64,000 nt of DNA. It comes from Opitutia bacterium UBA7350. GTDB taxonomy: Bacteria; Verrucomicrobiota; Verrucomicrobiia; Opitutales; Coraliomargaritaceae. The stretch lies in assembly GCA_949524905.1 (NCBI GenBank), contig CATINC010000004.1, positions 51,840-115,839 of the forward strand, read 5' to 3'. The notes below the pieces were generated by a model. That model made no database searches and was not told the DNA's origin. It worked only from the letters and a program-made list of their open reading frames with translations. The position numbers and the translations under genes were made by a program. Below, one piece after another: positions 1 through 29,597 of the stretch (positions are counted from its first letter, which is position 1; every line of letters begins with the position of its first letter).

Positions 1-1679
1 TCCAATTGGCGCTGGTTGCCACGTGCCTGAACGGATTGTGATTCGCGGCAAAATTGATCCACGTTTTGGTAGACCGAGTCCAATTCACAGGCCGAAAGCG
101 CGGCACGTAGATCATTCAGGATTTTGTGATGATGACGATAGGCAGGAAGGAGAGCATTGCCCTCAGCCTGAAACTGTTCGCAGTTTGCTTCAAGCTCGGG
201 CAGTCCGCCAAAACCAAACTCTGAGACGAAAAGACCCGCATCTGCTTTGATCACGGTGTTGCCTTCATTGGTGTCCTTGTTTCCCAGCGTTTGGTAGAGT
301 TTCCAATGTTTCTCACTCACGGGAGCGCGCACGTAGCTGTGCAGTTCGGTGAGAGATTTACGCTCGCTTGAGTGGGGAAGGTAGAAATGTGCACCTTCTG
401 CCCATCCGCCGGATTCATCCAGTACGAGCCGGGTCGGGTCCAGTTCGCGCGTCATGCGAGACATGGGTGCAATCAGGGCGGCGATTTCCTTGCGGGTGAC
501 TTCGTTGAATATCTCCCACCAAATAATACAAGGATGGTTGCGATCCCGCAGAACCAGTTGGCGGATTTCATGCTTTATGCGCTTGGGGGTCTCTGGTGTG
601 AGGGCGGGCCAACAGCTCATACATTCCACCGCAGGTGAGGCGATAACCAGTAACCCCGCCGCATCGGCTTCTTCGAGAATCATGGGCGGAACCGGTCGCC
701 TCCAGGGGCGTAGCAGGTTCAGACCCGCGGCTTTTGCCAGTTCGATTTCCTTGCGCACAACGGCACGGTCTTCGGGGTAGGATTGATGCTTGGCATAAAC
801 GCCTTCCCAGAACCCTCCGCGCAAATAGATGCGCTCGCCGTTGAGACAAAAGCGTTCGTTTTCATAGGTAAAGGATCGCAAGCCCACGCGCTCACGTCGG
901 AGGGCGCAGGGCGCGCCGTTAATACACAGTCGCACTTCGGCGGTGTAAAGGTGCGGGTTCTCGGGACTCCAAAGGATTGGGTTTTCAATGGGTAAGGTCC
1001 GTGAGCAGTGGTTGGTGCCGTTTTTAAAATGCTGCGCTGACTTTTGAGTGTACACGCATTGACCTGTTTCGCTGAATATAGTGATTTCGATTTCGCCCGC
1101 GATCCTTTCTTTGGATTGCACGGAAAGAGCGAGGTCAAATTGTGATTGCTTAATATTCGGCTGATAAAAGGCAGATTCGATCCACGCATGCGGATTGAAT
1201 TCAAGGCTTACGGACTGCCAGATGCCCGCGGTTAGGCCTCCACGCCAGTGTGGCATTTCGTTCGGTCCTAGGTCGTCGACCTTCAAATCCTTTGTGACGA
1301 TTGGGCTGACGACGCGTGCGATAATAGAGTTTTCGCTGCCGTAATGAAGCAGGTCCTGAATCTCGAAGTGGAAGGGAGTGTAGCCGCCATCGTGTTTACC
1401 CGCAGATTTACCGTTGATCCAAACTTGGGTGCGGTAATTGGAGGCCTGAAAACAGAGTCGGCTGATTTGTCCTTCATGCGCGCTATCAACATCAATGGTG
1501 GTAAAATACCAAGCCACCCCTTCGTAATCCTGAAAGTGTTCCTCCCAGCAACAGGGGACGGCAATATCGATACTATTTCGCTTGAGCTGTTCGGGATGGG
1601 TGAACCATGCATCGCGCAACCCCTTATTCTCCAAATCAAGTTTGATTTTCCAGATTTTATCTAGGTTTAAAGATTCCAT
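1..1679 (-). CDS. Glycoside hydrolase family 2 (beta-galactosidase/beta-glucuronidase-like), N-terminal ~559 aa; C-terminus runs off the left edge
   Basis: Absent from the ORF track because it is open at the window edge. My own translation from the ATG at 1679..1677 reads MESLNLDKIWKIKLDLENKGLRDAWFTHPEQ... with no stop down to position 3. It contains GVAWYFTTIDV (GH2 sugar-binding-domain style), RSFTYENERFCLNGERIYLRGG, and the TIM-barrel acid/base motif RNHPCIIWWEIFNE (checked codon by codon around 500-570). No signal peptide. Confidence 0.8.
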   Translation of the reverse strand, partial: MESLNLDKIWKIKLDLENKGLRDAWFTHPEQLKRNSIDIAVPCCWEEHFQDYEGVAWYFTTIDVDSAHEGQISRLCFQASNYRTQVWINGKSAGKHDGGYTPFHFEIQDLLHYGSENSIIARVVSPIVTKDLKVDDLGPNEMPHWRGGLTAGIWQSVSLEFNPHAWIESAFYQPNIKQSQFDLALSVQSKERIAGEIEITIFSETGQCVYTQKSAQHFKNGTNHCSRTLPIENPILWSPENPHLYTAEVRLCINGAPCALRRERVGLRSFTYENERFCLNGERIYLRGGFWEGVYAKHQSYPEDRAVVRKEIELAKAAGLNLLRPWRRPVPPMILEEADAAGLLVIASPAVECMSCWPALTPETPKRIKHEIRQLVLRDRNHPCIIWWEIFNEVTRKEIAALIAPMSRMTRELDPTRLVLDESGGWAEGAHFYLPHSSERKSLTELHSYVRAPVSEKHWKLYQTLGNKDTNEGNTVIKADAGLFVSEFGFGGLPELEANCEQFQAEGNALLPAYRHHHKILNDLRAALSACELDSVYQNVDQFCRESQSVQARGNQRQL

Positions 1680-1702
1680 GGGCTTCGTTTGCTTTCCTTT
1701 TT

Positions 1703-1773
1703 TTCGTAAGCGGTAAAAAATAGCAGAGATTACCTTTCTTATCTGTTTTCAAAAAAGCAAAACTGTTCGTAAG
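1703..1773. promoter_or_regulatory. Pair of direct repeats TTCGTAAG(N)GGTAAA / TTCGTAAGGGCGTAAA upstream of the GH2 gene; candidate operator
   Basis: The octamer TTCGTAAG occurs at 1703-1710 and 1766-1773 (63 bp apart, about 6 helical turns) in the 164-bp gap between the sulfatase stop (1844) and the GH2 start (1679). The flanks are also similar (GCGGTAAAA vs GGGCGTAAA). Confidence 0.25.
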
Positions 1774-1843
1774 GGCGTAAATACGTATTTGAGGGAAGAT
1801 AGTCGCTCAGGGGGGCGAATGGGTTCCTTTACAGCGGACTCGA

Positions 1844-3367
1844 TCAAAAAGAGCAGACATCCGTAGGGCTGTGTCCTGAGGGCGGGCTGCCGCCATGTAT
1901 GGATTCCAGCAGGGCCTTGAGTTCAGCCACTTTCTCCGGATTCTGGGCAGCAAGGTTTTCCCGCTGACCTATATCTGCATCCATATCATAGAGTTGTGGC
2001 GCGGAGTCATTACCGGTTTCAATCCCCTTGTCGCCAAAGAGTTTGGGTCCGTCATGTGGTGGTATGTAAACCCAGTTACCCTGCCTGACGACGGTTTTGG
2101 ATCCGATACCCTCGGTGACAAGATGGTCGCGTCCAACAGTGTCTTTACCCAGCAGAGTAGCGCTTATTTCAAGACTGTCGGCCTGCTCGCTCTCTGGAAT
2201 GGTTGCACCTGCCATATCAGCAAAACTCATCAGGAAATCGGCATGGCTGAAAAGAGCGGGGGTTTCGCCTGCCTTGATGTAACCCGGTGACCAGGCAATC
2301 ATTGGAACCCGCGAGCCGCCATCAAACATGCTGTATTTTCCACCACGCAGGGGTCCGGCAGGTTTATGCTCGCCGCATTTAACACTGGCATCATCGCGGT
2401 AGCCATCGTCCAAGACCGGACCGTTGTCACTGGAAAAGATTACGACGGTGTTTTTGTCCAGGCCCTCCGCTTTCAAATGTTCGAGGATTTCACCGACGCA
2501 CCCGTCGAGTTCGGCAATGACATCTCCGCGTGGACCCTTGTCCGTGCTGCCCGCAAAGCGTGGATTGGGAATGCGCGGAACGTGCGGCTGATGGAGGGCG
2601 TAGTAAAGGAAGAAGGGTTGCGTCTTGTTTTTGCTGATGAAGTTTTTGGAACGTTTCAGAAAGACATCACTCATAGTTTCATCATCCCAAGTGGCCGCCC
2701 TCCCGCCGCGGCAAAAACCGATACGGCCGACGCCATTGACGATGGTGTCGTAATGCTGTTGGTCGCTGTGACGCATCGATAGAAGCTCAGGGTTGTCTTT
2801 GCCGGTTGCCACTTCGGGGAAGGGATTTACACCGCCGTACACTACCGAGATGGGGTCATCTGGATCGAGTCCATCTACTTTGCGGCCATCGACATAGACG
2901 CAGGGTACGCGGTCATTGGTAGCCGCCATGACATAGGATTCATCAAAACCGACATCGAGCGGGCAGGGGGAAATTTCGCCATTCCAATCGATATTGCCGT
3001 CACCAAGACCGATATGCCATTTGCCGATAACAGCGGTGCGGTAGCCCGAGTCGCGCAGGGTGCCGGGTAGGGTGCGTTCGTCTTCACCAATAATCATGGG
3101 TGCATCCCCTGGCAAAATACGCGCCCGTTTGTTGCGCCAGGGATAGGCGCCTGTGAGGAGGCTGTAGCGCGAGGGCGTGCAGGTGGCCGCAGTAGCGTAA
3201 CTTTGTGTAAACCGAAGCCCCTCGCTCGCCATACGGTCCAAATGAGGTGTTGGTATGCCCGAGGCACCGTAGCAGGAAAGGTCACCGAACCCGAGATCAT
3301 CGGCGTAGATAATAATAAAGTTGGGTGTCAATTTTGGTAAGTTTACGGTCATAAAATTTTGAATCAA
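1844..3367 (-). CDS. Sulfatase (formylglycine-dependent, Cys-type), apparently cytoplasmic
   Basis: 507-aa ORF. Motifs: FIIIYADDLGFGDLSCYG (metal-binding N-terminus), CTPSRYSLLTGAYPWR (C-x-P-x-R FGly motif), VIFSSDNGP, GGKYSMFDGGSRVP. The N-terminus MIQNFMTVNLPKLTPN has no hydrophobic signal peptide. Confidence 0.93.
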   Translation of the reverse strand: MIQNFMTVNLPKLTPNFIIIYADDLGFGDLSCYGASGIPTPHLDRMASEGLRFTQSYATAATCTPSRYSLLTGAYPWRNKRARILPGDAPMIIGEDERTLPGTLRDSGYRTAVIGKWHIGLGDGNIDWNGEISPCPLDVGFDESYVMAATNDRVPCVYVDGRKVDGLDPDDPISVVYGGVNPFPEVATGKDNPELLSMRHSDQQHYDTIVNGVGRIGFCRGGRAATWDDETMSDVFLKRSKNFISKNKTQPFFLYYALHQPHVPRIPNPRFAGSTDKGPRGDVIAELDGCVGEILEHLKAEGLDKNTVVIFSSDNGPVLDDGYRDDASVKCGEHKPAGPLRGGKYSMFDGGSRVPMIAWSPGYIKAGETPALFSHADFLMSFADMAGATIPESEQADSLEISATLLGKDTVGRDHLVTEGIGSKTVVRQGNWVYIPPHDGPKLFGDKGIETGNDSAPQLYDMDADIGQRENLAAQNPEKVAELKALLESIHGGSPPSGHSPTDVCSF

Positions 3368-3642
3368 TAGTTGTGGAAAAAAATTTAAGGCAGTGCTTGG
3401 TCAGATATATAAATCGGCTGAGCTGGATGAAAGTGAATGCCGATATTAACAGTCAAAACAGTTGAGGGTTCAAGTGGAATTCTACGGTTACATGGTCTGC
3501 AAACGCCTTTAAAGCATAGGATAACAAATTTTGATGATGCCTTTAAAATTGCTCTAGTTGCGCATAAAATAACCAAATTTATGGCTAAAAGTTCTCAAAA
3601 TCGTAGAAAATGTTATCTTCAGAGTAATTAGTCGAAAACTAC

Positions 3643-3680: not shown

Positions 3681-3704
3681 CACCTTTTAATCTGTTACTA
3701 GTTT

Positions 3705-4445
3705 ATGAAAAATATACCCTCGATTCTAACTTTCGTTCTTCTTTTTGGATTCAGCCATGTACATGCTGAGAATCTCATAGCCGGCTGGAACGCCTGGGGT
3801 GGTTCTAACGATACAGATTACGTTAACAGTGCTAACGCTGATGAACTACTCACGGGTTTTAGTGGTTCTATGGGCTCGGATTTGATTTCGGCATACCCTA
3901 CATTAGGCGGTGGACATTATGTAGTGAATTGGGGCAGTTCGAGCGTAACGGATTACGGCGGCTTTGCCAGCTCAAACATCTCAGCGAATTCTTTCCGTAT
4001 TGGCGTACGTGAAACAAATAATGCGAAAATGTTGGATTTTCAAATTACAAACAATTCTGGCTCATCCTATGCATTGGATTCGATTTATTTTGACCATTTA
4101 TGGACAGCTGCGGCTGATTCTACCGGGTTTACCATTAAGCATAATTCCTCAATCAGTGATTTGCTCGCAAGCGGTTCTGTCAATTTGGGATCAGTTGCCG
4201 ATCCGGGTGTGAATACGACTTGGTCTGATGGTGTTGTTGATTTCTCATCCAACAATTACGTTTTAGCCGACGGTCAATCATTTGGTTTCCGCTTGGAGCT
4301 CGATCATTCCGGCAACAATAGTAACAATATATTTGTCGACAATGTTGCTATCACAGGTGTTGCCGTAGTTCCAGAACCCGGTACATTTGCCATGGTTTTG
4401 GGTCTATTCTCACTGGCCTTGGTTGTGTCTCGTCGTCGCAAGTAA
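3705..4445 (+). CDS. Secreted PEP-CTERM-anchored protein of unknown function
   Basis: 246 aa. Signal peptide MKNIPSILTFVLLFGFSHVHA. The C-terminus VPEPGTFAMVLGLFSLALVVSRRRK is a PEP motif plus TM helix plus Arg-rich tail (exosortase sorting signal). Body is Ser/Asn/Gly-rich and beta-rich. Confidence 0.85.
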   Translation: MKNIPSILTFVLLFGFSHVHAENLIAGWNAWGGSNDTDYVNSANADELLTGFSGSMGSDLISAYPTLGGGHYVVNWGSSSVTDYGGFASSNISANSFRIGVRETNNAKMLDFQITNNSGSSYALDSIYFDHLWTAAADSTGFTIKHNSSISDLLASGSVNLGSVADPGVNTTWSDGVVDFSSNNYVLADGQSFGFRLELDHSGNNSNNIFVDNVAITGVAVVPEPGTFAMVLGLFSLALVVSRRRK

Positions 4446-4463
4446 AACTTTTTTACTTATTTT

Positions 4464-4801: not shown

Positions 4802-7702
4802 TTAATTACTCAAGGGGATAGCGCGCTTGTTCATCTTGGCAGGGTACTGCATCTGATAGAAGCGCTTGGGAGCAGTGTTGTCGTAGTCTTCGGTACGCGT
4901 GCTGCCGCTCTCGAGCTCAAAGCTGGAGTGGGGGTCCCAATCAATACTTGGATCGGTGCCGAGATCGGTGCTTTTTTCAACGGTGTAGGAAAGGCCGGCA
5001 TCGAGGTTGCTGTATTCCAACTTCTGTAAGGTGGGATTCAGCTGAAGAACCGCGTCTCGGGTTGGAACAGATAGGAGCGTCTTATAGTTGTTGGTAACCA
5101 CCGTTTCTCCGCTGATCTGGTAGAGCTGAATACCCCCGATCGCTACTCCGGCTCCGCTAATATTGGCTAAAGTGAAACTGATGCTGTCAGTAGTCAGCAA
5201 AGCCTCAGCACTGCCAAAGACTGCATATTGTGCTTCAGGGGTTGGGTCAGCAGAAACCGTATCGGTGGTCTGCGCGGGGATGATCGGTGCCGCTGGGCTT
5301 GCCATGGCCTGAAAGTAATAGGTGGTACTGCCATCGGAGATTGAGGCCTTGTTGTTGCCTAGATAGCCGGTCAAGTAGACGACTGCGATGCAGCCATTTG
5401 GAAAAGTGGCATTTAAGTCGCTGAGTGTGACCGTAGTAGGGGCGGCGATTCCCTTTTGCATGGGCGTATCAGCATAGGCTCCGTTATAGTAAGGAAAGGT
5501 GCCGGATGCAGTGAGGTCCACCGTAGTGGCGGTGCCTGCGCCTGAACTTAGATTGTTGGTGCTCGCTGAGAGATTTTCCCAGTTGTCGCTGACCGTTCCG
5601 AGTGCGCTGATCCCGTAGCTCTCTTCGCTGTCAATGCGGGTGGCGTCACTCGTCGCGTCAGTAAAATTGACGCTCACAATGGTGCTGTTACCGCTGATTG
5701 TTTCGCTCACTCCGTTCGCATTAAAATCAACTGCAGGCTGACTGCGGGCATCCAGGGCGGCATCATGGGCGAGATACCAGGTTTCCATGGTTTCCAGTAT
5801 GCTCTTGTAGATATTGCCAGAGGGAATGCTTGCTACCGTGCTATAGCCGTTAATGAGATCCGTTTGTTGGCCCGGATCTGAGGTGAGATTGTAGAGCTGT
5901 AAATCGGAACCGTTGTCATCAAAGATCAGAACCCATTGGTTACCATTTTCATCGTAACGCACTGATTGGTTCAAGGTGTTCTTATTAATGATATAAAAAT
6001 GCTGACTGCGAATGGGGCTGACGTTACTCGGTGTTCCGCTCATTAAAAAGGGTACGAGGCTGATGGAATCCTGATGCTGGTCTGAAGCGATAGATTGACC
6101 GGTCAAGTCGATGAGTGAAGCGGCTGCATCTATTACAGAGACATGGCGGTCGCAAACCGTTCCTGGTACAATCACCGACCCATTTGATGTGCCGTCACCC
6201 CATTTCCAGGCAAAAGGAACGCGGTGCCCGCCTTCATAGATGGAGCTTTTGGAGCCCCGCCAGGGTCCGCTGGGATGCTGACGATCGCTGGTCTCTGTGC
6301 GTGCTTTGGTAACAAGGGTCCCGCCGTTATCACTCGAGAGAATAACTAGGGTGTTGTCCGAAATACCGTTAGCATCAAGCGCATCGAGGATTTTGCCGAT
6401 TTGTTGATCCAGATCGACCACGAAGTCACAGCGAGGTCCGAGCCCGGTGCTTCCACGTGCGTGCAGTGATGGAGTAATAGGGGTGTGCACAGCGGGCGCG
6501 GCATAGAATAGCATAAAGGGTTGGTCCGGGGCCGTTTGCACCCGAGACTCAATGTATTGCACCGCATGGTAGGCAAGGATGGGACCGTGTTCGCTCGTAT
6601 CAAAGCGGGAATCACCAAAGCCTTTGGCAAGGAGTTCGCCGTAGTCGTTGACCATTTCGCTGGTTCCGGCTTCAGTGACAATATTGTTCTTGTCGTCATA
6701 AACGGTGTTAGCCAGATAAGAGCCGGTAATTGGATTGTTCAAGTTGGTGTTACTATAACGAGTTGCTTCAAAATAGCGCAAGGTTGAGCTGGTTCCCAGC
6801 GCGGTCGCATTCATGGAACCCGGCCACCAAGTTTCAACGGCTTGATCAAAATCGCTGATAGGCTTGTAGGTATCGTACTCAAAATACATGTAGAGTTTGC
6901 CCTGAATACCATCGGGGCTGACGAAGGTATAGTCGAAGCCGTGATCCAGCATCCCTTGGTCGAACTGCTGGCTAAAATCGTAGGCGTCGTAACCGTTGGG
7001 GTTGCTGGGGAAAAAGCTGTAACGCAGAACATCACCATCCCAGTCGAAAAAGTCGCCTCCGATATGCATTTTACCGAAGAAAGCGGTGTGGTAGCCCGCC
7101 GTTTTCAAGATGTCACCCAGGGTATCATGGGGGTTGTTTTTGCGGTCGCCGTATCCGTTAATACTACCGCTCGCAACGCTTCCGTTAGAATTCAGCACTT
7201 CGATCGTCTGGCCACCCACGGTATAGCTTAAGGTTTTTGAGTCGATTCCACTGCGACTGGTACTGTAATTAAGACCGGTGCTTTCGGTGTGTCCCCAAGT
7301 GCCGAATTGCCGCGAACGAATCGTAGTATTACCCGTGAGGACGCAAAAACGATTGGGCGCACACAGGGAAGCAGGCAACTGGGCATCGGTAAACAGCATA
7401 CCCTCGTCACAAATACGATCCATATTGGGGGTTGGAATAACGGTTTCCGGAGTGGTGCCATCGTAATTGGTATGGCTGCTATCAATCAATCCCTGATCAA
7501 TGAAATAATCATGATAGGCGCCGACATCACCGATCCCGAGGTCGTCCGCAAATATGAAAACAATATTTGGAAGGGTGGCTCCCGCTTTCTCACCTGCAGA
7601 TAGGAGGGGGATGGTTCCACAAAAAGCGATAAAATTAATAATCAGGATAAGAAATTTCATGAAGTAAAGGGTAAGCATCCTCCTGTTGTGGAGGGGTTGC
7701 AT
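4802..7702 (-). CDS. Large secreted sulfatase (Cys-type) with an internal insertion and a ~330-aa C-terminal domain of unknown function
   Basis: 966 aa. Signal peptide (MKFLILIINFIAFCGTIPLLSAG). Motifs: FIFADDLGIGDVGAY, LCAPNRFCVLTGN (C-x-P-x-R), FFGKMHIGG, ILSSDNGG, KSSIYEGGHRVPF. Alternative in-frame starts at 7678 or 7660. The C-terminal third (from roughly aa 640) has no motif I recognise. Confidence 0.88.
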   Translation of the reverse strand: MQPLHNRRMLTLYFMKFLILIINFIAFCGTIPLLSAGEKAGATLPNIVFIFADDLGIGDVGAYHDYFIDQGLIDSSHTNYDGTTPETVIPTPNMDRICDEGMLFTDAQLPASLCAPNRFCVLTGNTTIRSRQFGTWGHTESTGLNYSTSRSGIDSKTLSYTVGGQTIEVLNSNGSVASGSINGYGDRKNNPHDTLGDILKTAGYHTAFFGKMHIGGDFFDWDGDVLRYSFFPSNPNGYDAYDFSQQFDQGMLDHGFDYTFVSPDGIQGKLYMYFEYDTYKPISDFDQAVETWWPGSMNATALGTSSTLRYFEATRYSNTNLNNPITGSYLANTVYDDKNNIVTEAGTSEMVNDYGELLAKGFGDSRFDTSEHGPILAYHAVQYIESRVQTAPDQPFMLFYAAPAVHTPITPSLHARGSTGLGPRCDFVVDLDQQIGKILDALDANGISDNTLVILSSDNGGTLVTKARTETSDRQHPSGPWRGSKSSIYEGGHRVPFAWKWGDGTSNGSVIVPGTVCDRHVSVIDAAASLIDLTGQSIASDQHQDSISLVPFLMSGTPSNVSPIRSQHFYIINKNTLNQSVRYDENGNQWVLIFDDNGSDLQLYNLTSDPGQQTDLINGYSTVASIPSGNIYKSILETMETWYLAHDAALDARSQPAVDFNANGVSETISGNSTIVSVNFTDATSDATRIDSEESYGISALGTVSDNWENLSASTNNLSSGAGTATTVDLTASGTFPYYNGAYADTPMQKGIAAPTTVTLSDLNATFPNGCIAVVYLTGYLGNNKASISDGSTTYYFQAMASPAAPIIPAQTTDTVSADPTPEAQYAVFGSAEALLTTDSISFTLANISGAGVAIGGIQLYQISGETVVTNNYKTLLSVPTRDAVLQLNPTLQKLEYSNLDAGLSYTVEKSTDLGTDPSIDWDPHSSFELESGSTRTEDYDNTAPKRFYQMQYPAKMNKRAIPLSN

Positions 7703-22245: not shown

Positions 22246-23772
22246 ATGAGAGTTAATCTACTGTTCGTTTTTTTATTTGTCACGGTCGCCACGGGGGCAG
22301 ATTACTACCTTAACGCTGAATTCGGCTCTGACGCCGCAAACGGTCTAAGCGAAAGGACGGCTTGGCGCAGTCTTGAACGCTTGAATAAGCAAGCGCTCAA
22401 AGCCGGTGACCGCATCCTGCTCGAGGCGGGGCAGGTTTTTCCCGGGCAATTCCATTCCAAGGATTCCGGAAGCGAGGCTGAGCCCATTCAGATGCTCAGT
22501 TATGGGGAGGGTGCCAAGCCGCGCATCGAGGCTCGAGGCAAATTTCAAACCGCGCTTTTGCTGGAGAATGTTTCCCATTGGATCATCGAAGGCATCGAAA
22601 TTACGAATACCGGGCCGGAACCGCAGGCGAAGCGACGTGGGGTCTTGATAAGAGCGAATGCAGGTGGGGTCCACAGAAATATTGTCCTACGCGGACTAAC
22701 GATTCGCGATGTTAACGGATCGATTTCAAAAAACAAGGGTGGGGGAACCGCTATCCGTTGGGAGGTCAGTAACCAGAAAAAACCGACTCGCATGGAGGGT
22801 CTCCTGATTGAGGACTGCCACGTATTGCGCTGTGACCGCGATGCTATCAAGGGTTGGATGGATCCCTGGGACGATCTTTCAAATTTGAGCACGGGCATTA
22901 TTATTCGGGGCAATTTACTTGAGGATATCGGCGGCGACGGCATTGTACCTATTGGAACCGAGGGTGCCTTGATAGAGTACAATCGTTTGTACGGTGCACG
23001 TCAGCGCATAGAGGGTCTTAATACCAGGGAAGTCACGCACTATGCAGGTCCGAGCGTGGGCATCTGGCCGTGGAGCAGCAAAAATACGCACGTGCGATTC
23101 AATGAGGTTTGGAATTATGCCGGTACGTTTGATGGACAGGGCTTGGACTCCGACTTCAATTGCTCAGGAACCCTTTTTGAATACAACCTGAGTGCGCAGA
23201 ACGCCGGTGGGTTCTTCCTGATTTGCAATTGGTCGAAGCATCAGGACTCCGGGCAATCGATCGGCAACTCCGGCACAATAATCCGCCACAACGTCAGTTT
23301 TAATGACCGCATCCGTGGTTTCGTTCTCAATGGCCCTGTCGAGACCGTAAGCCTTCACGGTAATGTCATTTACAACACCGTGGAGGATATCTTTCAACTT
23401 ATTGTTGATACACCCTGGGAGGGTGGACGTTTCTCGGAGTCGGTCACCGTAACCGACAATCTTTTCTTCACCCGTGGCGAGGCTCAGATTTATCAAGGCA
23501 CCTGGGGCGGCGGCGGCATGGGACTCTGGAAAGCCCAAAAGAAAATCAGCCGTCAAAACTTTGACTTTAAGGGCAACGCCTACACCCGCGTGACTGGATT
23601 TAAGGGGACGGAGCATATCGAGCCGGGAAAGATTCAATTGAAAAATTCCGAGACTCTGGGATCTTTGATCGGTCGTTTTGACGCTGACCTTAAAGTGCGT
23701 GCAAATTTTGACCGCATGCACCGTTTCCTTGAGAAGTCGCGCTATTGGTCGCTGCTTCAAGCTGCACTTTGA
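22246..23772 (+). CDS. Secreted right-handed parallel beta-helix protein; candidate polysaccharide hydrolase or lyase of unknown family
   Basis: 508 aa. Signal peptide MRVNLLFVFLFVTVATGA. The N-terminal cap reads DYYLNAEFGSDAANGLSERTAWRSLERLNKQALKAGDRILLEAGQVF. It is followed by about 10 PbH1-like coils at 22-30 aa spacing: WIIEGIEITNTG, IVLRGLTIRDVNG, LLIEDCHVLRCDRDAIKG, IIIRGNLLEDIGGDGIVP, ALIEYNRLYGA, THVRFNEVWNYAG, TLFEYNLSAQNAGG, TIIRHNVSFND, VSLHGNVIYNT, VTVTDNLFFT. Confidence 0.7.
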   Translation: MRVNLLFVFLFVTVATGADYYLNAEFGSDAANGLSERTAWRSLERLNKQALKAGDRILLEAGQVFPGQFHSKDSGSEAEPIQMLSYGEGAKPRIEARGKFQTALLLENVSHWIIEGIEITNTGPEPQAKRRGVLIRANAGGVHRNIVLRGLTIRDVNGSISKNKGGGTAIRWEVSNQKKPTRMEGLLIEDCHVLRCDRDAIKGWMDPWDDLSNLSTGIIIRGNLLEDIGGDGIVPIGTEGALIEYNRLYGARQRIEGLNTREVTHYAGPSVGIWPWSSKNTHVRFNEVWNYAGTFDGQGLDSDFNCSGTLFEYNLSAQNAGGFFLICNWSKHQDSGQSIGNSGTIIRHNVSFNDRIRGFVLNGPVETVSLHGNVIYNTVEDIFQLIVDTPWEGGRFSESVTVTDNLFFTRGEAQIYQGTWGGGGMGLWKAQKKISRQNFDFKGNAYTRVTGFKGTEHIEPGKIQLKNSETLGSLIGRFDADLKVRANFDRMHRFLEKSRYWSLLQAAL

Positions 23773-23790
23773 AGTAACACAATTAAACCA

Positions 23791-25839
23791 ATGGACTACC
23801 AAAAGAAGGGAATCCCGAAGCAAACCGGACTATTCTATGGTGCGGATTACAACCCCGATCAATGGCAACACGCGCCGGAGATCCTTGAGCGTGACATCGC
23901 GCTCATGAAAGAGGTGGGCGTGACCTCTGCCTCGATTGGTATCTTCGCTTGGACTGCGCTGGAACCGCAGGAGGGACGGTACCAATTTGAATGGCTTGAT
24001 CGTATCATGGACCGTTTCGCCGAGGAAGGAATGTTTGTTTTTTTGGCAACGCCCAGCGGAAGCAAACCGATTTGGCTTTCCGAAAAATACCCGGAAGTGC
24101 GCCGTCTTGGAATTGACGGACTGCGGGAAAATTCGGGTCGACGTCATAATCATTGTTTGAGTTCAAAGGTTTATCGTGAAAAAACCCGCGCGATTAATAC
24201 CGCACTTGCCGAACGTTACGGGCAACATCCCGCACTCGCGCTCTGGCATGTGGGCAACGAATTTAGCGGGGAATGTCATTGTGAGCATTGTCGCCTTGCC
24301 TTTCAGAACTGGCTCAAGGAACGCTACCACACGCTCGACGCCCTCAACGATGCCTGGTGGAGCGCCTTTTGGAATCACACCTACTCCGATTGGGGCGAGA
24401 TCCAAACCCACGACCCAAGTATCGACGCCCTACAGCTCGATTGGATGCGTTTCGTCAATGACCAGCACGTTTTGTTTATGCTCAATGAAATGGAACCCCT
24501 GCGTGAGTTGACCCCGGGGATTCCATGTACCACCAATTTCATGGGAACGCACGAAAGCACCAATTACTGGCAGTGGGCGGAACACGTGGACTGCATTGCC
24601 AATGATTTGTACCCCTTGCCGGATGATCGCAAGGACACCTGGCGCAATGCCATTCGCGCAGATTTCATCCACACTATGATGCGCGGCATGAGTGGCGGTA
24701 AGCCCTGGATGTTGATGGAATGTTCGCCAAGTTCGGTCAACTGGGGAGGCATTAATCAATTAAAGCGTCCGGGCGTGCATCGGCAAGAGGTGCTCCAGGC
24801 GGTCGCCAACGGTGCCAGTACGGTTCATTATTTTCAATGGCGCAAGGGCAGGGGTGGCTTTGAAAAATACCACGGGGCAGTCGTCGATCACGAGGGCAGT
24901 AACCGAAGCCGGGTGTTCCAAGACTGCGCCGCCATCGGTGCGGAACTTAAAAGCCTCGCTCCATTGGGTGAGCACGATTGTCCAACAGCTGAGGTAGCTT
25001 TGCTTTACGACTGGGAAAGCCGTTGGGCGCTCAAGTCCTCAAAAGGCCCCAAGGTCCTCAAAGAGGAGGGCCCATTTGCTTCAGATCTCTACAGCGAGAC
25101 TTGTTTCGACCATTACGAAGCCCTAACGCAAAACGGCTTGTCGGTCGATGTGGTTTCAACGAAATCAGACTTGAGTCATTACAAGGTCCTGGTTCTACCC
25201 GCACTGTATTTTGTGGAGGATGCCCTCGCTTCCCGCATTCGGGCTTTTGTTGAAAAGGGCGGTAACGTGGTGGGTACTTATTTAACGGCCTATGTCGATT
25301 CAAGCAACCGTTGCCACCTCGGCGGTTTCCCCGGTGCTGGGCTTCGAGAAGTCTTTGGCATATGGAACGAAGAACTCGACAACCTTCATGATGAAACACG
25401 GGTAATACTAGAGGGCGAAGTGCAGGGTGTGGCGCGTGACCTCGCCGAGCGGATTCATTTGGAGGGCGCAAGCACGCTAGCGCAAGCGGCATCAGAGTTT
25501 TACGCGGGGCATCCTTTGGTCACGCACATGGATTACGGGGAGGGTTCTGCCTGCTATATTGCCGCGCGTTTGGAAATGCCCGCCTTGTGCGCCTTCTATC
25601 AACATCTGCGGGAAAAAGTCGGTTTGGAGCGTACGGTGGCATGTGATCTTCCGCAGGGCGTTGTTTTTCGGAAGCGCAAGTCCGCTGATGGCACCCTGGG
25701 TTTTCTTTTTAACTATACCCGAGAAACTAAGCGCATTGGATTAGGTGAGGGGAAATGGTTCGCCTTCGGTGAACCGGAGACCATTTATGCTGGCTCGCTG
25801 GAATTAGCGCCCTATGCCACCCTGACTCTAAGGTTGTAG
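23791..25839 (+). CDS. GH42 beta-galactosidase, cytoplasmic
   Basis: 682 aa. Motifs: FYGADYNPDQWQ, WHVGNEFSGECHCEHC (acid/base Glu plus the GH42 Cys-cluster Zn site), PWMLMECSPS (nucleophile Glu). No signal peptide. Confidence 0.92.
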   Translation: MDYQKKGIPKQTGLFYGADYNPDQWQHAPEILERDIALMKEVGVTSASIGIFAWTALEPQEGRYQFEWLDRIMDRFAEEGMFVFLATPSGSKPIWLSEKYPEVRRLGIDGLRENSGRRHNHCLSSKVYREKTRAINTALAERYGQHPALALWHVGNEFSGECHCEHCRLAFQNWLKERYHTLDALNDAWWSAFWNHTYSDWGEIQTHDPSIDALQLDWMRFVNDQHVLFMLNEMEPLRELTPGIPCTTNFMGTHESTNYWQWAEHVDCIANDLYPLPDDRKDTWRNAIRADFIHTMMRGMSGGKPWMLMECSPSSVNWGGINQLKRPGVHRQEVLQAVANGASTVHYFQWRKGRGGFEKYHGAVVDHEGSNRSRVFQDCAAIGAELKSLAPLGEHDCPTAEVALLYDWESRWALKSSKGPKVLKEEGPFASDLYSETCFDHYEALTQNGLSVDVVSTKSDLSHYKVLVLPALYFVEDALASRIRAFVEKGGNVVGTYLTAYVDSSNRCHLGGFPGAGLREVFGIWNEELDNLHDETRVILEGEVQGVARDLAERIHLEGASTLAQAASEFYAGHPLVTHMDYGEGSACYIAARLEMPALCAFYQHLREKVGLERTVACDLPQGVVFRKRKSADGTLGFLFNYTRETKRIGLGEGKWFAFGEPETIYAGSLELAPYATLTLRL

Positions 25840-25885
25840 GGGCGGGGCTTTTGGGTCTTGCTGTGGAAGACTACCCAATATTCCC

Positions 25886-27298
25886 ATGAAGCTTTTTAAA
25901 AAAACCAAGACCTCGCGTTTTCAAACCCTCGTTATTGGTATCGCCCTGACTGCCGCCGCAACGCTGGTCAACGCCAAGCCAAACATCATTGTCATTTTTG
26001 CCGACGATATGGGTTACGGCGACATGAGCAATAACGGCCACCCAACCATCCGCACGCCCCATTTGGATCAAATGACTGCAGAGGGGCAGAAATGGACAAG
26101 TTTCTATTCGGCTTCTTCGGTCTGTACTCCCAGTCGTGCGGCGCTTCTGACGGGTCGTTACGCTGTTCGGAGCGGTATGGAGTCAAAGGCTTACGGGGTA
26201 CTCTTTCCGGATTCAAAGGGCGGACTGCCAGCCTCGGAAGTCACCCTCCCTGAAATGCTCAAAGAGGTGGGTTATGCCACGGGTATGGTGGGGAAGTGGC
26301 ACCTCGGGCACCTGCCGGAGTTTCTCCCGACCCGCCACGGATTTGATTCCTGGTACGGCATCCCCTATAGCAATGACATGGAACTCGATCGACCAAAGGT
26401 CACGGAACTCAATGGCGGGAGTCTGGGTCAATGGCATACGGGTGTTCATTGGGATGAGCCGAAGTCGGAATATTGGCAAGTACCGCTCATGGAAGGGGAG
26501 ACTATTCTCAAGCTTGCTCCGGATCAGACCCAGCTCACAAAATCCTACACTACAAAAGCCATCGATTTTATCGAGTCCCACAAAAAAAAGCCCTTCTTCC
26601 TCTATCTTGCACACAGCATGCCTCACGTCCCGCTCTTTCGCTCAAAGGACTTTGAGGACTTCAGCGCCGCAGGACTTTACGGCGATGTCATTGAAGAGAT
26701 CGACCATTCGGTCGGTCAAATCCTAGGAGCTTTGCGTGAGAACGGGCTCGCGAAAAACACCCTCGTGGTCTTCACTTCCGATAATGGCCCCTGGTTAGAG
26801 TTCAAGACGAAGGGCGGTATCGCTGGTCCCTTGCGCGGCGGGAAGTTTGATACTTACGAGGGCGGTATGCGTGAGCCGGGGATTTTCTGGTGGCCGGGCA
26901 AAATAAAGCCGGCAATCATTCACGATATCGGTTCCACGCTGGATTTTATGGCAACCTTTGCCGCCATTGCAGGACTCGATGCGCCCGAAGCCGCAGTCGA
27001 TAGCTACGATCTCTCGGGCACTTTGTTGCAGGGCGAGGCAAGTCCACGCAAGGAACTCTTTTACTACAAGAGTACTCACGTCGAGGCACTTCGTGTCGGT
27101 AGCTTCAAAGTCCACTTTGACCGCGATGCTAGGTCCGCCAAGCCGGCAATCACGGCTTGCTATAACCTTGACCACGATCCCGGGGAAAACTACGACCTAC
27201 GCGAATCCCAAGCGCACTTATTGTCGGACTTCATCCAGCGCCTGCAACAACACCGCGCAACCATCGAACCCGTAGAGGATCAACTCGCAAGGCGATAG
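25886..27298 (+). CDS. Secreted sulfatase (Cys-type, arylsulfatase A/GalNAc-6-sulfatase-like)
   Basis: 470 aa. Signal peptide MKLFKKTKTSRFQTLVIGIALTAAATLVNA. Motifs: IIVIFADDMGYGDMSNNG, CTPSRAALLTGRYAVRSG, VFTSDNGPW, GGKFDTYEGGMREP. Confidence 0.93.
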   Translation: MKLFKKTKTSRFQTLVIGIALTAAATLVNAKPNIIVIFADDMGYGDMSNNGHPTIRTPHLDQMTAEGQKWTSFYSASSVCTPSRAALLTGRYAVRSGMESKAYGVLFPDSKGGLPASEVTLPEMLKEVGYATGMVGKWHLGHLPEFLPTRHGFDSWYGIPYSNDMELDRPKVTELNGGSLGQWHTGVHWDEPKSEYWQVPLMEGETILKLAPDQTQLTKSYTTKAIDFIESHKKKPFFLYLAHSMPHVPLFRSKDFEDFSAAGLYGDVIEEIDHSVGQILGALRENGLAKNTLVVFTSDNGPWLEFKTKGGIAGPLRGGKFDTYEGGMREPGIFWWPGKIKPAIIHDIGSTLDFMATFAAIAGLDAPEAAVDSYDLSGTLLQGEASPRKELFYYKSTHVEALRVGSFKVHFDRDARSAKPAITACYNLDHDPGENYDLRESQAHLLSDFIQRLQQHRATIEPVEDQLARR

Positions 27299-27322
27299 GC
27301 GGATTGGGTTGAATCTTGAGCC

Positions 27323-28132
27323 TTACTTTGCTTCTGCCTTTGAACTCAGGGCGTGCAGATTGAAGAGGTCGTAATTGGCTTCTTCGACTACAGCGCCGGA
27401 GCTGACATAAGCGTATAGGTCTTCGTCGTATAAATGAGGCACTTTTAGGTCGCCGCTCAGAGTCGCCAACGTGCTTCGCTTGTCCATATTTCTCAATGCT
27501 GCTTCAAAGCTCAATACTCCTGCTTTGGATGATTTTGTAAGGGTAAATTCAATTTCCAGCTTGTCGCTCAAGTCATCGGCGTCGGATGTGTCATCGCCAA
27601 TTGACGCGTAATTGACGTTCTTTGAAAAAAATCCTCCGCCGCTTTTGCCGAAGACGTAGAACTGATAGCTTTCACTATGTTGTGGGGTCTTTTGAATGCC
27701 CGCATAAACGATCTCGATGGCCTCGTTTTTAGCATTCGAGAACCCAACACCACCGAGCATGGTGGGTACCTTGCCGCCCATAACCATCGCAGGCAGCCCT
27801 TCAAAAGTGTAGACGATCCGCGCGGACCATGTACTGCCCACATCAAACCCTTCACCTGCTCCCTTCTGAAGCAGTGCCCGTGCTCCCCGACTATTCGGGT
27901 CGCGTCGCAAAATCCCCATTTCGTAATTCCTAGAACGAGGAAAATACAGTCCGCCTCGGACAGACGCACCCTCGACAAAATATGGAGCCGCTTGCTGAAT
28001 TTGTTTATCAATACCACCGCTTACATAACCTTCCGCAGCGCTGAAGCTCGTGGAAAAATCCAGATCGGCAAAAGCGGTAGTCGCGAAAGTGAACAGGAGA
28101 CTTAGGAAAATGAAAGTGTTTCTTTGATACAT
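27323..28132 (-). CDS. Secreted protein of unknown function
   Basis: 269 aa. Signal peptide MYQRNTFIFLSLLFTFATTAFA. Gly/Ser-rich, beta-rich body with no recognisable motif. Lies downstream of the anSME gene on the same strand (193-bp gap) and convergent with the plus-strand operon. Confidence 0.6.
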   Translation of the reverse strand: MYQRNTFIFLSLLFTFATTAFADLDFSTSFSAAEGYVSGGIDKQIQQAAPYFVEGASVRGGLYFPRSRNYEMGILRRDPNSRGARALLQKGAGEGFDVGSTWSARIVYTFEGLPAMVMGGKVPTMLGGVGFSNAKNEAIEIVYAGIQKTPQHSESYQFYVFGKSGGGFFSKNVNYASIGDDTSDADDLSDKLEIEFTLTKSSKAGVLSFEAALRNMDKRSTLATLSGDLKVPHLYDEDLYAYVSSGAVVEEANYDLFNLHALSSKAEAK

Positions 28133-28325
28133 AGTTTTGAATGAGTGGATTTAAGGCGCTACACGTGTAATTCAATGTTCGGCGGCACACTAGTCAAAAG
28201 AATTAAGCAGACTTCAAAGCAGGAAGCATAGATGGACACGAATTCATAGGATGAAGACAATGTTCGATACTTGTCCGCTGACGCCTTGGCGTAGGTGGAA
28301 GACGCGATGGGTCAAAGCTCTATGC

Positions 28326-29597
28326 TCAGCCCCGGGTTTGTCGTTGTTGGGCGAGGATGTCCATGACGGCGGCGGGGGCTTGTTGGCGGCGGTATAGGTC
28401 GGCCATGATTTTCATGGCAGGGTCAATATGTTTGAAAAATTGTTTGTAGGCGGGGCAGAGGTAGTTGAGGCCCCATTCGCCGTCAGGGGTGTAGGTGAAG
28501 CGGTGTTTAGGGCATTCGCCGTTGCAGGCAAAGCGGACGCTGCAGTCGCGACAATATTGGGGGAGGCGGTCGCGTTTGGCCTCGCCGAAGGCTTTGGCCT
28601 TGGGGCTGTCGGCGAGTTCGCCGAGGCTGTTGTTCATTAAATTCCCGAGTTTGAATTTGGGGTAAACGTAGTGGTCGCAGGTGTAAAGTTCGCCGTCGTG
28701 TTCCATAGCAAGGGCGCGTCCGCAGGTCTCGGAGAAATAACAAAGGCCGCCGGTGACGCCAAGCCATTTACTGAGGGCGACGTCGAAGAGTTGGATATAG
28801 ATTTTACCGACGTCGCGTTTGATCCAGGCATCGAATATTTTGCAGAGAAAGTCGCCGTATGCCTGTGCGGGAACGGCGTGGGCGGACATGCGGGGGGCTT
28901 CGCCGTCGAGGGGTGGGTTTTTGAGATCCGGCGGGGCGGCGAAATCCAGCCCAAGTTTTGCGGCAGCAGTATCGACTTCGCGTTCGACGATGGGGATGAA
29001 TTGAATGTATTTGGAGCCGATGCTCTTTAGGAATTTGTAGATCTTTACAGGGTGCTGTACAGTGTCGCTGTTGATGCAGGTGAGGGTGTTGAACTCGACT
29101 TCGTATTTGCGGAGGATGTGGAGTCCGCGCATGACGTCCTTATAGGAATCGCGTCCTTTTTTATCGACGCGATTGGCGTTGTGAACTTCTTCGGGACCGT
29201 CTATGGAGAGCCCTACAAGGAAGTTGTTTTCAGCAAGGAAGGCGCCCCATTGGTCGTCAAGGAGGGTGCCGTTGGTTTGGAAAGCGTTGGCAATGGTTTT
29301 TCCTTGGGCGTATTGTTTTTGAAAAGCGACGACCTTGCGGAAGTAATCGACTCCGAGGAGGGTGGGTTCACCTCCCTGGAAAGCGAAGGTGACCTCCAGT
29401 CCCGGTTGGGCGGCGATGTAGTCACGGACGAAGACTTCGAGTCGTTCGTCTGACATTTTCCACTTCTCGTTCTCGGGGTAAAATTGCTCTTTTTCGAGAT
29501 AGAAGCAATATTTGCAGTCGAGATTACAGATAGGTCCAATTGCCTTGGCCATGACATGAAAGCTGTCGCTGGCAGGCTTGGAGATTTTGGGGAGCAT
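28326..29597 (-). CDS. Anaerobic sulfatase-maturating enzyme (radical SAM / SPASM)
   Basis: Radical-SAM cluster CNLDCKYCFY near the N-terminus. C-terminal Cys-rich SPASM region: CYFSETCGRALAMEHDGELYTCDH and CRDCSVRFACNGECPKHRF. The true start is most likely MLPKISKP at 29597; the 29735 start in the track overlaps serC. Confidence 0.88.
   Translation of the reverse strand: MLPKISKPASDSFHVMAKAIGPICNLDCKYCFYLEKEQFYPENEKWKMSDERLEVFVRDYIAAQPGLEVTFAFQGGEPTLLGVDYFRKVVAFQKQYAQGKTIANAFQTNGTLLDDQWGAFLAENNFLVGLSIDGPEEVHNANRVDKKGRDSYKDVMRGLHILRKYEVEFNTLTCINSDTVQHPVKIYKFLKSIGSKYIQFIPIVEREVDTAAAKLGLDFAAPPDLKNPPLDGEAPRMSAHAVPAQAYGDFLCKIFDAWIKRDVGKIYIQLFDVALSKWLGVTGGLCYFSETCGRALAMEHDGELYTCDHYVYPKFKLGNLMNNSLGELADSPKAKAFGEAKRDRLPQYCRDCSVRFACNGECPKHRFTYTPDGEWGLNYLCPAYKQFFKHIDPAMKIMADLYRRQQAPAAVMDILAQQRQTRG

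Follow-up and report, generated by a model that had tools for sequence, protein, structure and literature searches.

A sulfatase-rich gene island of a marine Verrucomicrobium couples a predicted 3,6-anhydro-D-galactose pathway to GH136-like and GH39-like glycosidases

Results

A Conserved Block of Sulfatase, Glycosidase, and Sugar-Acid Genes

We analyzed a stretch of 64,000 nucleotides (hereafter the window) from Opitutia bacterium UBA7350 (assembly GCA_949524905.1, contig CATINC010000004.1, positions 51,840 to 115,839), an uncultured member of the Verrucomicrobiota that is known as a metagenome-assembled genome (MAG) and for which a literature search found no paper using the name UBA7350. Positions 1-29597 form the right-hand ~30 kb of a gene island at least 37 kb long. 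Gene content was assigned with an open reading frame (ORF) listing together with Pfam and NCBIfam profile searches of the window proteins. By these Pfam and NCBIfam assignments, positions 1-29597 contain six Cys-type sulfatases, one anaerobic sulfatase maturase, and glycoside hydrolases (GH) of families GH2 and GH42. Also present are a 964-amino-acid (aa) clan GH-A protein, a beta-helix protein, an AraC regulator and a four-gene sugar-acid module, so that the inventory which an earlier note had read from the sequence was borne out gene by gene. The locus is a real sulfatase-rich, sugar-degrading gene island of a marine Verrucomicrobium. Its plus-strand arm starts at position 13213 and ends at 27298 with the following genes, in this order:

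13213-16107, plus strand: secreted 964-aa enzyme, N-terminal beta-sandwich domains and a clan GH-A (beta/alpha)8 domain (alignment, AlphaFold2)
16124-17878, plus strand: secreted 584-aa sulfatase, CAPSR motif, paired with the preceding GH39-like gene (Pfam)
17898-19310, plus strand: aldehyde dehydrogenase, DauA-like (Pfam Aldedh, E 1.9e-132)
19315-20469, plus strand: enolase-superfamily enzyme, DauB-like (best PDB match 5OLC, 329 bits, E 5e-97)
20486-21127, plus strand: class I aldolase of the 2-keto-3-deoxy-6-phosphogluconate/galactonate (KDPG/KDPGal) type, DauD-like step (Pfam Aldolase, E 8e-56; TIGR01182 eda, 201 bits against a cut-off of 156)
21142-22233, plus strand: PfkB-family 2-keto-3-deoxy-gluconate/galactonate (KDG/KDGal) kinase, DauC-like step (Pfam PfkB; NCBIfam KDG/KDGal kinase, E 2.4e-53)
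22246-23772, plus strand: secreted right-handed beta-helix enzyme, distant GH136 homolog (PDB 6KQS, E 1e-29)
23791-25839, plus strand: cytoplasmic GH42 beta-galactosidase (Pfam Glyco_hydro_42, E 1.7e-137, plus trimerisation domain; PDB 5E9A, 635 bits)
25886-27298, plus strand: secreted sulfatase, CTPSR motif (Pfam; PDB 1E2S, 311 bits, and 4FDI, 295 bits)

The sugar-acid module points to anhydrogalactose. The best solved match of the enolase-superfamily protein, 5OLC, is the Zobellia DauB, a 3,6-anhydro-D-galactonate cycloisomerase (PMC5698469). The window protein scored 234 bits to the galactarolactone cycloisomerase 4GGB and 138 bits to the 3,6-anhydro-L-galactonate (L-AHGA) cycloisomerase 5XD7, and it retains K-x-K, D, E, E and H-x-W as catalytic residues. 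The best plasmid matches of this protein were the DauB genes in canonical carrageenan clusters of Persicobacter and Flammeovirga, where GH127, GH2 and sulfatase genes are found as well; the Flammeovirga gene lies among two GH127 genes, a GH2 gene, sulfatases, a RhaT-type permease, DauA, a kinase and an aldolase. The enzyme is predicted from these comparisons to be a 3,6-anhydro-D-galactonate cycloisomerase that would form 2-keto-3-deoxy-D-galactonate. For the aldehyde dehydrogenase, the best of 3673 matching plasmid records was the dehydrogenase of a dauABCD cluster on a Pseudoalteromonas carrageenovora plasmid (40.5%), with the DauA-like genes of Flammeovirga and Persicobacter among the next best, and this enzyme is predicted to convert 3,6-anhydro-D-galactose into 3,6-anhydro-D-galactonate. 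From the succession of an aldehyde dehydrogenase-type step, a cycloisomerase, a 6-kinase and an Eda-type aldolase we infer the logic of an anhydrogalactose pathway. Two other routes were considered for these genes and rejected. By pathway chemistry the kinase and the Eda-type aldolase need a 6-hydroxy 2-keto-3-deoxy-hexonate, which excludes a 6-deoxyhexose substrate and thereby the non-phosphorylative rhamnose or fucose route for the enolase-family enzyme and the dehydrogenase. An oxidative uronate route (galactarolactone cycloisomerase plus ketoglutarate-semialdehyde dehydrogenase) was ruled out by the lack of a uronate dehydrogenase or KdgD, since the kinase and aldolase would have no role in it, and it is further disfavored because the enolase-family protein is nearer to DauB than to 4GGB.

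The gene that follows this module encodes the beta-helix protein. Besides 6KQS, it matched 5GQC (phmmer E 4.6e-24); both are lacto-N-biosidases, and the solved or curated relatives of the protein are GH136 lacto-N-biosidases only, on which ground its assignment as a GH82 iota-carrageenase was discarded. The NCBIfam LnbX model was matched at E 2.3e-21, far below its equivalog cut-off, and the ~90 residues that precede the helix match the N-terminus of 7V6M. An F-D296-G-Q-G-L-D301-S-D303 motif is invariant in five family members, and D296 and D303 lie seven residues apart within the GH136-matched segment. In the GH136 enzyme ErLnb136 the acid/base D568 and the nucleophile D575 are likewise seven residues apart (PMC7335108). 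It is thus suggestive that D296 and D303 are the counterparts of the GH136 catalytic pair, the likeness being one of spacing. No adjacent gene was recognized as a candidate for the LnbY/GH136-I partner, though no search with an LnbY model was made, and no paper linking GH136 to marine sulfated glycans was found in the literature. Given its tight coupling to the dau-like module, an anhydrogalactosidase-type role is proposed for the beta-helix enzyme, which by analogy would release an anhydrogalactose-containing product to feed that module. A homolog of the protein in Sphingobium has fatty-acid and aromatic catabolism genes as neighbors and is uninformative.

The first gene of the arm encodes a 964-aa protein for which no Pfam domain match was obtained, the GH39 profile included. 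Its AlphaFold2 model (pLDDT 80.8) had as top Foldseek matches the GH39 structure 5JVK (E 3e-21, TMt 0.70) and PslG (TMt 0.72), the latter being also matched by phmmer (E 2e-5). In an alignment with 31 close homologs, all from marine Opitutia-like sources, the E692 (NEP) and E798 (TEFG) motifs are invariant, and E692 is proposed as the acid/base and E798 as the nucleophile; PF01229 was found in one of these 31 homologs. A profile search of 1.84 billion representatives returned 24 proteins at E<=1e-30 and 869 at E<=1e-10, and the distant relatives have CBM_4_9 joined to a clan GH-A domain not covered by any single Pfam GH family, with marginal matches to GH39, GH5, GH10, and GH42. Judged by modeled fold and motifs, the catalytic domain is GH39-like and of clan GH-A.

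We then compared the gene order with that of related loci. Relatives of the window's GH2 fragment were found only in Coraliomargaritaceae, Puniceicoccaceae, and Opitutia MAGs (best 89% identity), apart from more distant matches in a Bryobacteraceae MAG and, among protein matches, in Planctomycetota and Kiritimatiellota. The block made up of the GH39-like gene, sulfatase, dauA, dauB, dauD, dauC, and beta-helix gene is kept in the window, in contigs L020-L022, in L023 and in seven of the 12 metagenome loci, while an eighth metagenome locus (L039) has the block without the GH39-like and sulfatase genes. The conservation reaches down to 58-63% identity of the GH39-like and beta-helix proteins; the beta-helix gene stands directly after the dau-like module in at least 11 loci, GH42 is next after the block in six, and the sulfatase of 16124-17878 is always paired with the GH39-like gene among the loci compared. 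A variant (L029:9773-14969; L031:8625-19061; L047:1-9471) lacks the dau genes and has the beta-helix gene directly after the sulfatase. In L031 and L047 two GH112 phosphorylase genes (Pfam E 1.5e-169) then take the place of GH42, and the L029 contig ends inside the beta-helix gene. GH112 and GH42 are related in structure, and enzymes of both families split beta-galactosyl disaccharides (PMC8106489). The exchange looks like a natural swap of a hydrolase for a phosphorylase. This swap, together with the GH136 precedent, suggests that the product freed by the beta-helix enzyme is a small beta-galactoside, which would be taken up and cut inside the cell; in the variant of the window, its aglycone sugar would then go into the dau-like module. 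In the UBA MAG GCA_002323955.1 (L020-L022:1-9864) a different set of carbohydrate-active enzymes (CAZymes) stands ahead of the right-arm block: a GH86-like gene (Porphyrn_cat_1), a sulfatase with Big_2, an 844-aa GH2, a GH43-like 379-aa protein, LacI, a GDSL esterase, and a SASA esterase. The 379-aa ORF was considered as a GH117 neoagarobiose hydrolase and rejected, its best annotated homolog belonging to a rhamnogalacturonan-type polysaccharide utilization locus (PUL). In four metagenome loci (L040, L041, L043, and L044) the gene after the beta-helix gene encodes a transposase (rve_3 or DDE_Tnp_1). G+C content is 51.3% in window positions 1-29600, 51.7% in an extension of the island beyond the window (L025:2619-9696) and 45.1% in positions 29601-64000. 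Given the transposases and this G+C shift, the block from the GH39-like to the beta-helix gene may move horizontally among Opitutia. The lineage is pelagic, having been recovered from TARA and other seawater metagenomes.

Sulfatases, Left-Arm Genes, and Layout of the Island

The remaining features of the island are, from left to right:

3-1679, minus strand: N-terminal 559 codons of a GH2 beta-galactosidase-like gene (six-frame translation); the gene (960 aa in full) continues beyond the left edge
1844-3367, minus strand: cytoplasmic S1_15-type sulfatase, CTPSR motif, no signal peptide (Pfam Sulfatase, E 2.9e-52)
3705-4445, plus strand: secreted 246-aa protein with a C-terminal PEP-CTERM tail, VPEPGTF...RRRK (sequence; weak PEP-CTERM matches)
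4802-7678, minus strand: secreted 958-aa sulfatase, CAPNR motif (Pfam Sulfatase, E 5e-31 over residues 45-535)
7707-8018, minus strand: 103-aa ORF (gene call, also made in L018; conserved in close relatives L023 and L026)
8049-9434, minus strand: secreted S1_19-like sulfatase, CGPSR motif (PDB matches of 322-333 bits)
9441-10343, minus strand: AraC-family transcriptional regulator (Pfam HTH_18, HTH_AraC)
10355-11755, minus strand: Tat-exported 466-aa sulfatase, CCPAR motif, RRDFLRSG signal (Pfam Sulfatase and SGSH_C)
11746-12528, minus strand: 260-aa all-beta protein, no signal peptide, first gene of the left operon (conserved)
12529-13212, no strand: divergent intergenic region between the left and right operons, 684 bp (681 bp with alternative gene coordinates), presumed to hold promoters and regulator-binding sites
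27323-28132, minus strand: secreted 269-aa protein (signal peptide by eye; gene also present in same-population contig L001)
28326-29597, minus strand: anaerobic sulfatase-maturing enzyme, radical SAM/SPASM (TIGR03942, 500 bits against a cut-off of 349)

All six sulfatases carry a C-x-[PA]-x-R motif (CTPSR, CAPNR, CGPSR, CCPAR, CAPSR, and CTPSR in positional order), and two of them bear directly on the substrate. The signal-less sulfatase of 1844-3367 scored 457-509 bits against 7OZC, 6S20 (a GalNAc-6-O-sulfatase, GalNAc being N-acetylgalactosamine) and 9BAS/9BAU (S1_15A/B galactose-6-sulfatases), with 457-467 bits to the S1_15 galactose-6-sulfatases of a lambda-carrageenan cascade; it is a clear S1_15 member and predicted to be an exo-galactose/GalNAc-6-O-sulfatase. 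The sulfatase of 8049-9434 matched 6BIA, 9HH3 (S1-19), 6B0J (iota-carrageenan), and 6PRM (exo-4S-kappa-carrageenan sulfatase) at 322-333 bits and is 41% identical to a sulfatase of the P. carrageenovora carrageenan plasmid, and a carrageenan-type galactose-4-O-sulfatase activity is predicted for it. For the Tat sulfatase the best PDB matches reached only 159 bits (3B5Q; 5G2T, a 2-O glycosaminoglycan sulfatase), and the best matches of the 16124-17878 sulfatase were weak (131-145 bits; 6HHM, 6HR5, and iduronate-2-sulfatase). We take 6HHM and iduronate-2-sulfatase to be S1_7 enzymes, so that this sulfatase would presumably be distantly S1_7-like. The sulfatase of 25886-27298 is closest to human arylsulfatase A (ARSA) and GALNS. 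The 958-aa sulfatase has a large insertion within its catalytic domain and a C-terminal extension of ~430 aa that no Pfam model matches; its slot is variable, TARA scaffold_36 having a different 867-aa sulfatase there on the opposite strand. No S1_17-like enzyme was identified among the window sulfatases by PDB and Pfam comparison. The maturase has Pfam Radical_SAM and SPASM matches and a CxxxCxxC motif, and as judged from its family it converts the Cys of C-x-P-x-R into formylglycine in the cytoplasm. It lies 10 bp downstream of serC in a same-strand run with topA (28326-33364, minus strand) and in neither CAZyme operon. Enzymes of this radical-SAM type are oxygen-sensitive, and the lineage was recovered from surface-ocean metagenomes.

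With respect to the other left-arm genes, the NCBIfam GH2 models match the window GH2 fragment below their cut-offs, and the full-length protein P0032, 100% identical over the 559 aa, has Pfam GH2_N, GH2, and GH2_C; the GH2 has no signal peptide, which indicates a cytoplasmic enzyme. The AraC regulator is 76-81% identical in L009, L012, L013, and L016 and holds the same position in L023, L029, and L031, its placement between two flanking sulfatases being conserved in relatives. The PEP-CTERM slot is kept in relatives with one to three paralogs, up to three in L010 (L010:1794-4998), and the protein may be a cell-surface, glycan-binding one. The 103-aa ORF had no significant Pfam match; in L027 its slot is taken by a 93-aa ORF. 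The 260-aa protein has 72 homologs, all unnamed and all from marine Opitutae/Puniceicoccaceae. It was considered as the missing glycosidase and rejected, because the sole fold match of its AlphaFold2 model (pLDDT 86.8) was the DUF1849 beta-barrel-like protein 6NTR (TM 0.53-0.57). The secreted 269-aa protein had no Pfam match even at E<=1.

The earlier note had described two divergent operons with gaps of roughly 0-50 bp. The intra-operon gaps are indeed tight (-14 to 46 bp), and boundary gaps measure 164, 334, 359, 681, and 193 bp; but there are more than two operons, because the PEP-CTERM gene splits the minus-strand side and the maturase belongs to the serC/topA run. Outward from the divergent region, the minus strand carries the 260-aa protein, the Tat sulfatase, AraC, a secreted sulfatase, the 103-aa ORF, and the 958-aa sulfatase, after which the plus-strand PEP-CTERM gene at 3705-4445 breaks the run; the signal-less sulfatase and then the GH2, both on the minus strand, lie beyond it. 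On the right, the 269-aa protein and the maturase are in one minus-strand run with topA and serC (phosphoserine transaminase, 663 bits), and these two genes mark the onset of housekeeping DNA. Window positions 30-64 kb hold lpxK, purL, arg, ilvC, and hem genes, a tyrosine recombinase and two tRNAs. The recombinase (Phage_integrase family, 50172-51101, minus strand) adjoins tRNA-Leu (49976-50060) and may represent either XerC/D or the border of an integrated element. Repeats and promoters were sought in the 681-bp divergent region with none found above chance, and tRNA and Rfam scans of the island gave no matches.

A Symporter Gene Just Beyond the Left Edge

In the absence of any transporter, the earlier note had considered the import route a puzzle and had suggested inspecting the sequence left of position 1. 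Profile searches likewise found no sugar transporter in window positions 1-64000. We therefore read the left flank from a same-population Logan contig (L025) with 99.96% nucleotide identity over window positions 1-2618, which runs 7078 bp further left than the window, so that the island continues at least 7 kb leftward. There the 960-aa GH2 is followed, after a gap of 26 bp, by a 469-aa MFS_2/GPH symporter, whose gene begins 1231 bp to the left of window position 1; next come two sulfatases and the first part of a further gene. The symporter is MelB-like with MFS_2 and MFS_1 matches, its TIGR00792 score of 195 bits being below the cut-off of 231, and its ortholog in L002 matches PF13347 at E 1.6e-64. 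A GH2 gene followed by one for an MFS_2 protein of ~480 aa occurs in every GTDB locus that reaches past GH2 and also in L026, L027, and L029, with TARA scaffold_36 and a Puniceicoccaceae MAG among the relatives that have it. TARA scaffold_36 has the same two-arm layout as the window, with proteins 76-88% identical, and its island goes on with three more sulfatases and a second GH2. In the Lentimonas relative L004 (18056-19843), a SulP/STAS sulfate permease gene lies two genes downstream of the GH2-MFS_2 pair, the genes between encoding an unnamed sulfatase and a sulfatase like that of 16124-17878; such a permease would fit export of cytoplasmically released sulfate.

The lack of a transporter thus held for the window alone and was an artifact of its edge, because the symporter follows GH2 just past it. 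Were the locus truly without a transporter, its sugars would enter by an unknown or distant route, and in favor of this one may cite the transporter-free 64,000-bp window and the outer-membrane step, which is really unassigned, there being no TonB-dependent receptor in any annotated relative. With the symporter 26 bp after GH2 in L025, and likewise after it in every relative that extends there, we consider this very improbable. The missing-transporter puzzle is, by sequence, resolved in an ordinary way, the symporter covering the inner-membrane step only. Neither a TonB-dependent receptor nor a SusD was found in the window or in the Pfam-annotated relatives (L020-L031 and the L025 and L026 extensions). 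The earlier note had regarded the absence of SusC/D as peculiar, whereas it is expected outside Bacteroidota. Its description of the architecture as a non-Bacteroidetes PUL holds, the host being a Verrucomicrobiota and the relatives MAGs of Coraliomargaritaceae and Puniceicoccaceae.

Discussion

Proposed Route

The division between secreted and cytoplasmic enzymes that had been claimed for the locus matches the N-termini of the proteins: four sulfatases are of Sec type, one is of Tat type and one is cytoplasmic, as are GH2 and GH42. Degradation would therefore proceed stepwise from outside to inside. Sequence searches provide the gene identities and neighborhoods, and from these we infer substrate specificities, the order of steps and the role of the regulator as follows. 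While still in the cytoplasm, all Cys-type sulfatases would receive their formylglycine from the radical-SAM maturase, and export by Sec or Tat would come only afterwards. In the periplasm or at the surface, the five exported sulfatases, one of them S1_19-like, would strip sulfate while the GH39-like 964-aa enzyme and the GH136-like beta-helix enzyme, given the specificities suggested for them, would depolymerize the chain. By analogy with the GH136 lacto-N-biosidases, the beta-helix enzyme would act as an exo-enzyme, yielding a small product with anhydrogalactose at its end or within it. The GPH/MFS_2 cation symporter may then import small, possibly 6-sulfated galacto-oligosaccharides, from which the cytoplasmic S1_15 sulfatase would remove the 6-sulfate, and GH2 and GH42 would cut beta-galactosyl linkages. 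The 3,6-anhydro-D-galactose set free would be oxidized by the DauA-like enzyme and ring-opened by the DauB-like enzyme; after phosphorylation, the product would be cleaved into pyruvate and glyceraldehyde-3-phosphate. Control of the divergent operons would fall to the AraC regulator, whose gene stands between those of two sulfatases.

Comparison With Known Systems

The Zobellia galactanivorans carrageenan system (ZGAL_3145-3159) has a core of dauA-D, dagA, cgsB, cgrA, and cgtA/B, its cluster holds no SusC/D pair in cis, and homologous carrageenan PULs have been listed in four phyla, Verrucomicrobiota not being among them (PMC5698469). The clusters of Zobellia, P. carrageenovora, and Flammeovirga kamogawensis share with the island the module of dehydrogenase, cycloisomerase, kinase, and aldolase, and also an S1_19-like sulfatase, AraC, GH2, an inner-membrane MFS-type permease, and the lack of an in-cluster SusC/D. 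The island differs in having neither GH127/GH129 nor GH16/GH82; in their stead it has the GH39-like and GH136-like enzymes, GH42, and a cytoplasmic S1_15 sulfatase, and its maturase is of the radical-SAM type. The kinase is of PfkB type here versus DgoK type in the P. carrageenovora and Flammeovirga plasmid clusters, and the AraC shares only 29% identity over 101 aa with that of the P. carrageenovora cluster. The locus thus works like the Zobellia and Pseudoalteromonas carrageenan systems but misses part of their core, there being no GH127/GH129 and, for S1_7, only the presumed member mentioned above. The lambda-carrageenan cascade of Pseudoalteromonas distincta U2A employs S1_15 exo-galactose-6-sulfatases and a GH2 beta-galactosidase, both types being present here, while its GH150, GH110, and S1_8 enzymes were not recognized in the window locus; lambda-carrageenan has no anhydrogalactose, so that the cascade needs no dau module, in contrast to the dau-like module of the island (PMC12549532).

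In the lacto-N-biose pathway of Bifidobacterium longum and colonic Clostridiales, an extracellular beta-helix GH136 acts first, and import is followed by cytoplasmic cleavage by GH112 or GH42, which is the same logic as proposed here. The GH136 of that pathway is only distantly homologous to the window protein (E 1e-29), however, and the window locus is without N-acetylhexosamine catabolic genes and has its beta-helix gene amid sulfatases and coupled to a dau-like module. Import would be through an MFS symporter in the island, whereas import in bifidobacteria relies on an ABC-type transporter with a solute-binding protein. In its architecture the locus resembles other sulfatase-rich islands of the Planctomycetes-Verrucomicrobia-Chlamydiae (PVC) group. 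Examples are fucoidan loci in ‘Lentimonas’ sp. CC4 and in bloom-associated Verrucomicrobiota, which reportedly are dense sulfatase/GH clusters without SusC/D, with exported and cytoplasmic enzymes and with PEP-CTERM proteins. In contrast to these islands, the substrate here would be a galactan and not a fucan, and no fucosidases and no fucose/rhamnose microcompartment genes are present. Bacteroidota-type PULs have an adjacent SusC-like/SusD-like pair, of which there is none in the window or the Pfam-annotated relatives.

Weighing the Possible Substrates

Taken together, we read the locus as a SusC/D-independent system for utilization of a sulfated beta-galactoside glycan, most likely one of the carrageenan family with galactose-4-sulfate, galactose-6-sulfate and 3,6-anhydro-D-galactose, and put the probability of this at about 0.55. 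The sulfated galactan and anhydrogalactose-type module named in the earlier note agree with the DauB-like enolase, the DauA-like dehydrogenase, and the S1_19-like and S1_15 sulfatases. Several observations weigh against the carrageenan-family assignment. No GH16, GH82, GH150, or GH167 was found in the window, the left extension or the Pfam-annotated relatives, and Pfam and NCBIfam gave no GH127 or GH129 match in the window, the L025/L026 extensions, or L020-L031. The dehydrogenase is generic by profile and scores equally against generic succinate-semialdehyde dehydrogenases, and identity to characterized Dau enzymes is ~33-42% only. The S1_15 family also has members that act on the GalNAc-6-sulfate of host glycans, the known roles of GH136 and GH112 are in lacto-N-biose/galacto-N-biose metabolism and not with galactans, and three sulfatases and three small proteins have no assigned role. 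The left flank rests on a same-population contig and not on the source contig. In addition, red-macroalgal carrageenan is no obvious substrate in a pelagic habitat. A more specific proposal, which we regard as tentative, is that the GH136-like enzyme is a new kind of 3,6-anhydro-D-galactosidase or carrabiose-releasing exo-enzyme that replaces GH127/GH129 while the GH39-like enzyme serves as depolymerase, allowing pelagic Opitutia to live on an anhydrogalactose-containing sulfated galactan.

The same genes were weighed against two other substrates. One is a host-type sulfated glycan built of Gal-beta-1,3-HexNAc (galactose linked to N-acetylhexosamine; mucin-, keratan- or glycoprotein-like), from which the GH136-like enzyme would free lacto-N-biose or galacto-N-biose for import, 6-O-desulfation by S1_15 and cleavage by GH42/GH112. 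The homology of the beta-helix protein to lacto-N-biosidases speaks for it, and so do the two GH112 genes, which belong to the lacto-N-biose phosphorylases, right after the beta-helix gene in relatives. The sulfatases can be read the same way: the S1_15 matches include the GalNAc-6-O-sulfatase 6S20, BT3333 of Bacteroides thetaiotaomicron is an S1_15 GalNAc-6-sulfatase, and the sulfatase of 25886-27298 is nearest to human ARSA and GALNS; another sulfatase, however, is closest to carrageenan galactose-4-sulfatases. We think a host-type glycan unlikely, since no hexosaminidase, sialidase, fucosidase, or N-acetylhexosamine catabolic gene was found in the window or the annotated relatives and since the dau-like module, though directly before the beta-helix gene in at least 11 loci, would be left without a role. 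An agar- or porphyran-type galactan, with the dehydrogenase and cycloisomerase acting on 3,6-anhydro-L-galactose (L-AHG), would leave that module in use, as the L-AHG pathway has the same two-enzyme logic and 5XD7 is a detectable homolog. This substrate is also suggested by the GH86-like gene (Porphyrn_cat_1) ~10 kb upstream of the block in L020-L022, and S1_15 could in principle remove galactose 6-sulfate. The enolase-family protein, however, scores 329 bits to DauB versus 138 bits to the L-AHGA cycloisomerase. The L-AHG pathway needs two oxidoreductases to turn 2-keto-3-deoxy-L-galactonate into KDG, and both are absent from the window by Pfam. No GH16, GH50, GH86, GH96, or GH117 gene is present in the window, and the suspected GH117 of L020 best matches a rhamnogalacturonan-type PUL. 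An agar- or porphyran-type substrate therefore appears quite improbable to us. Both alternatives are less consistent with the linkage of the dau genes to the beta-helix gene and with the DauB preference than a glycan of the carrageenan family.

What remains of interest is that a dau-like pathway and GH136-like and GH39-like enzymes are kept together in abundant marine Verrucomicrobiota. The sulfated glycans of algae make up a large pool of carbon that is recycled slowly, and Verrucomicrobiota are regarded as specialists in consuming them. In this locus, kept in many seawater metagenomes, a carrageenan-type anhydrogalactose pathway is tied to two uncharacterized secreted glycosidases, which stand where textbook carrageenases and anhydrogalactosidases would be. 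If the assignment to carrageenan-like galactans is true, these glycosidases would represent new enzyme activities for red-algal-type galactans, the gene block would provide a tractable marker set to trace such galactans in the open ocean, and carrageenan-like galactans, or an unknown anhydro-sugar glycan, would feed open-ocean bacteria.

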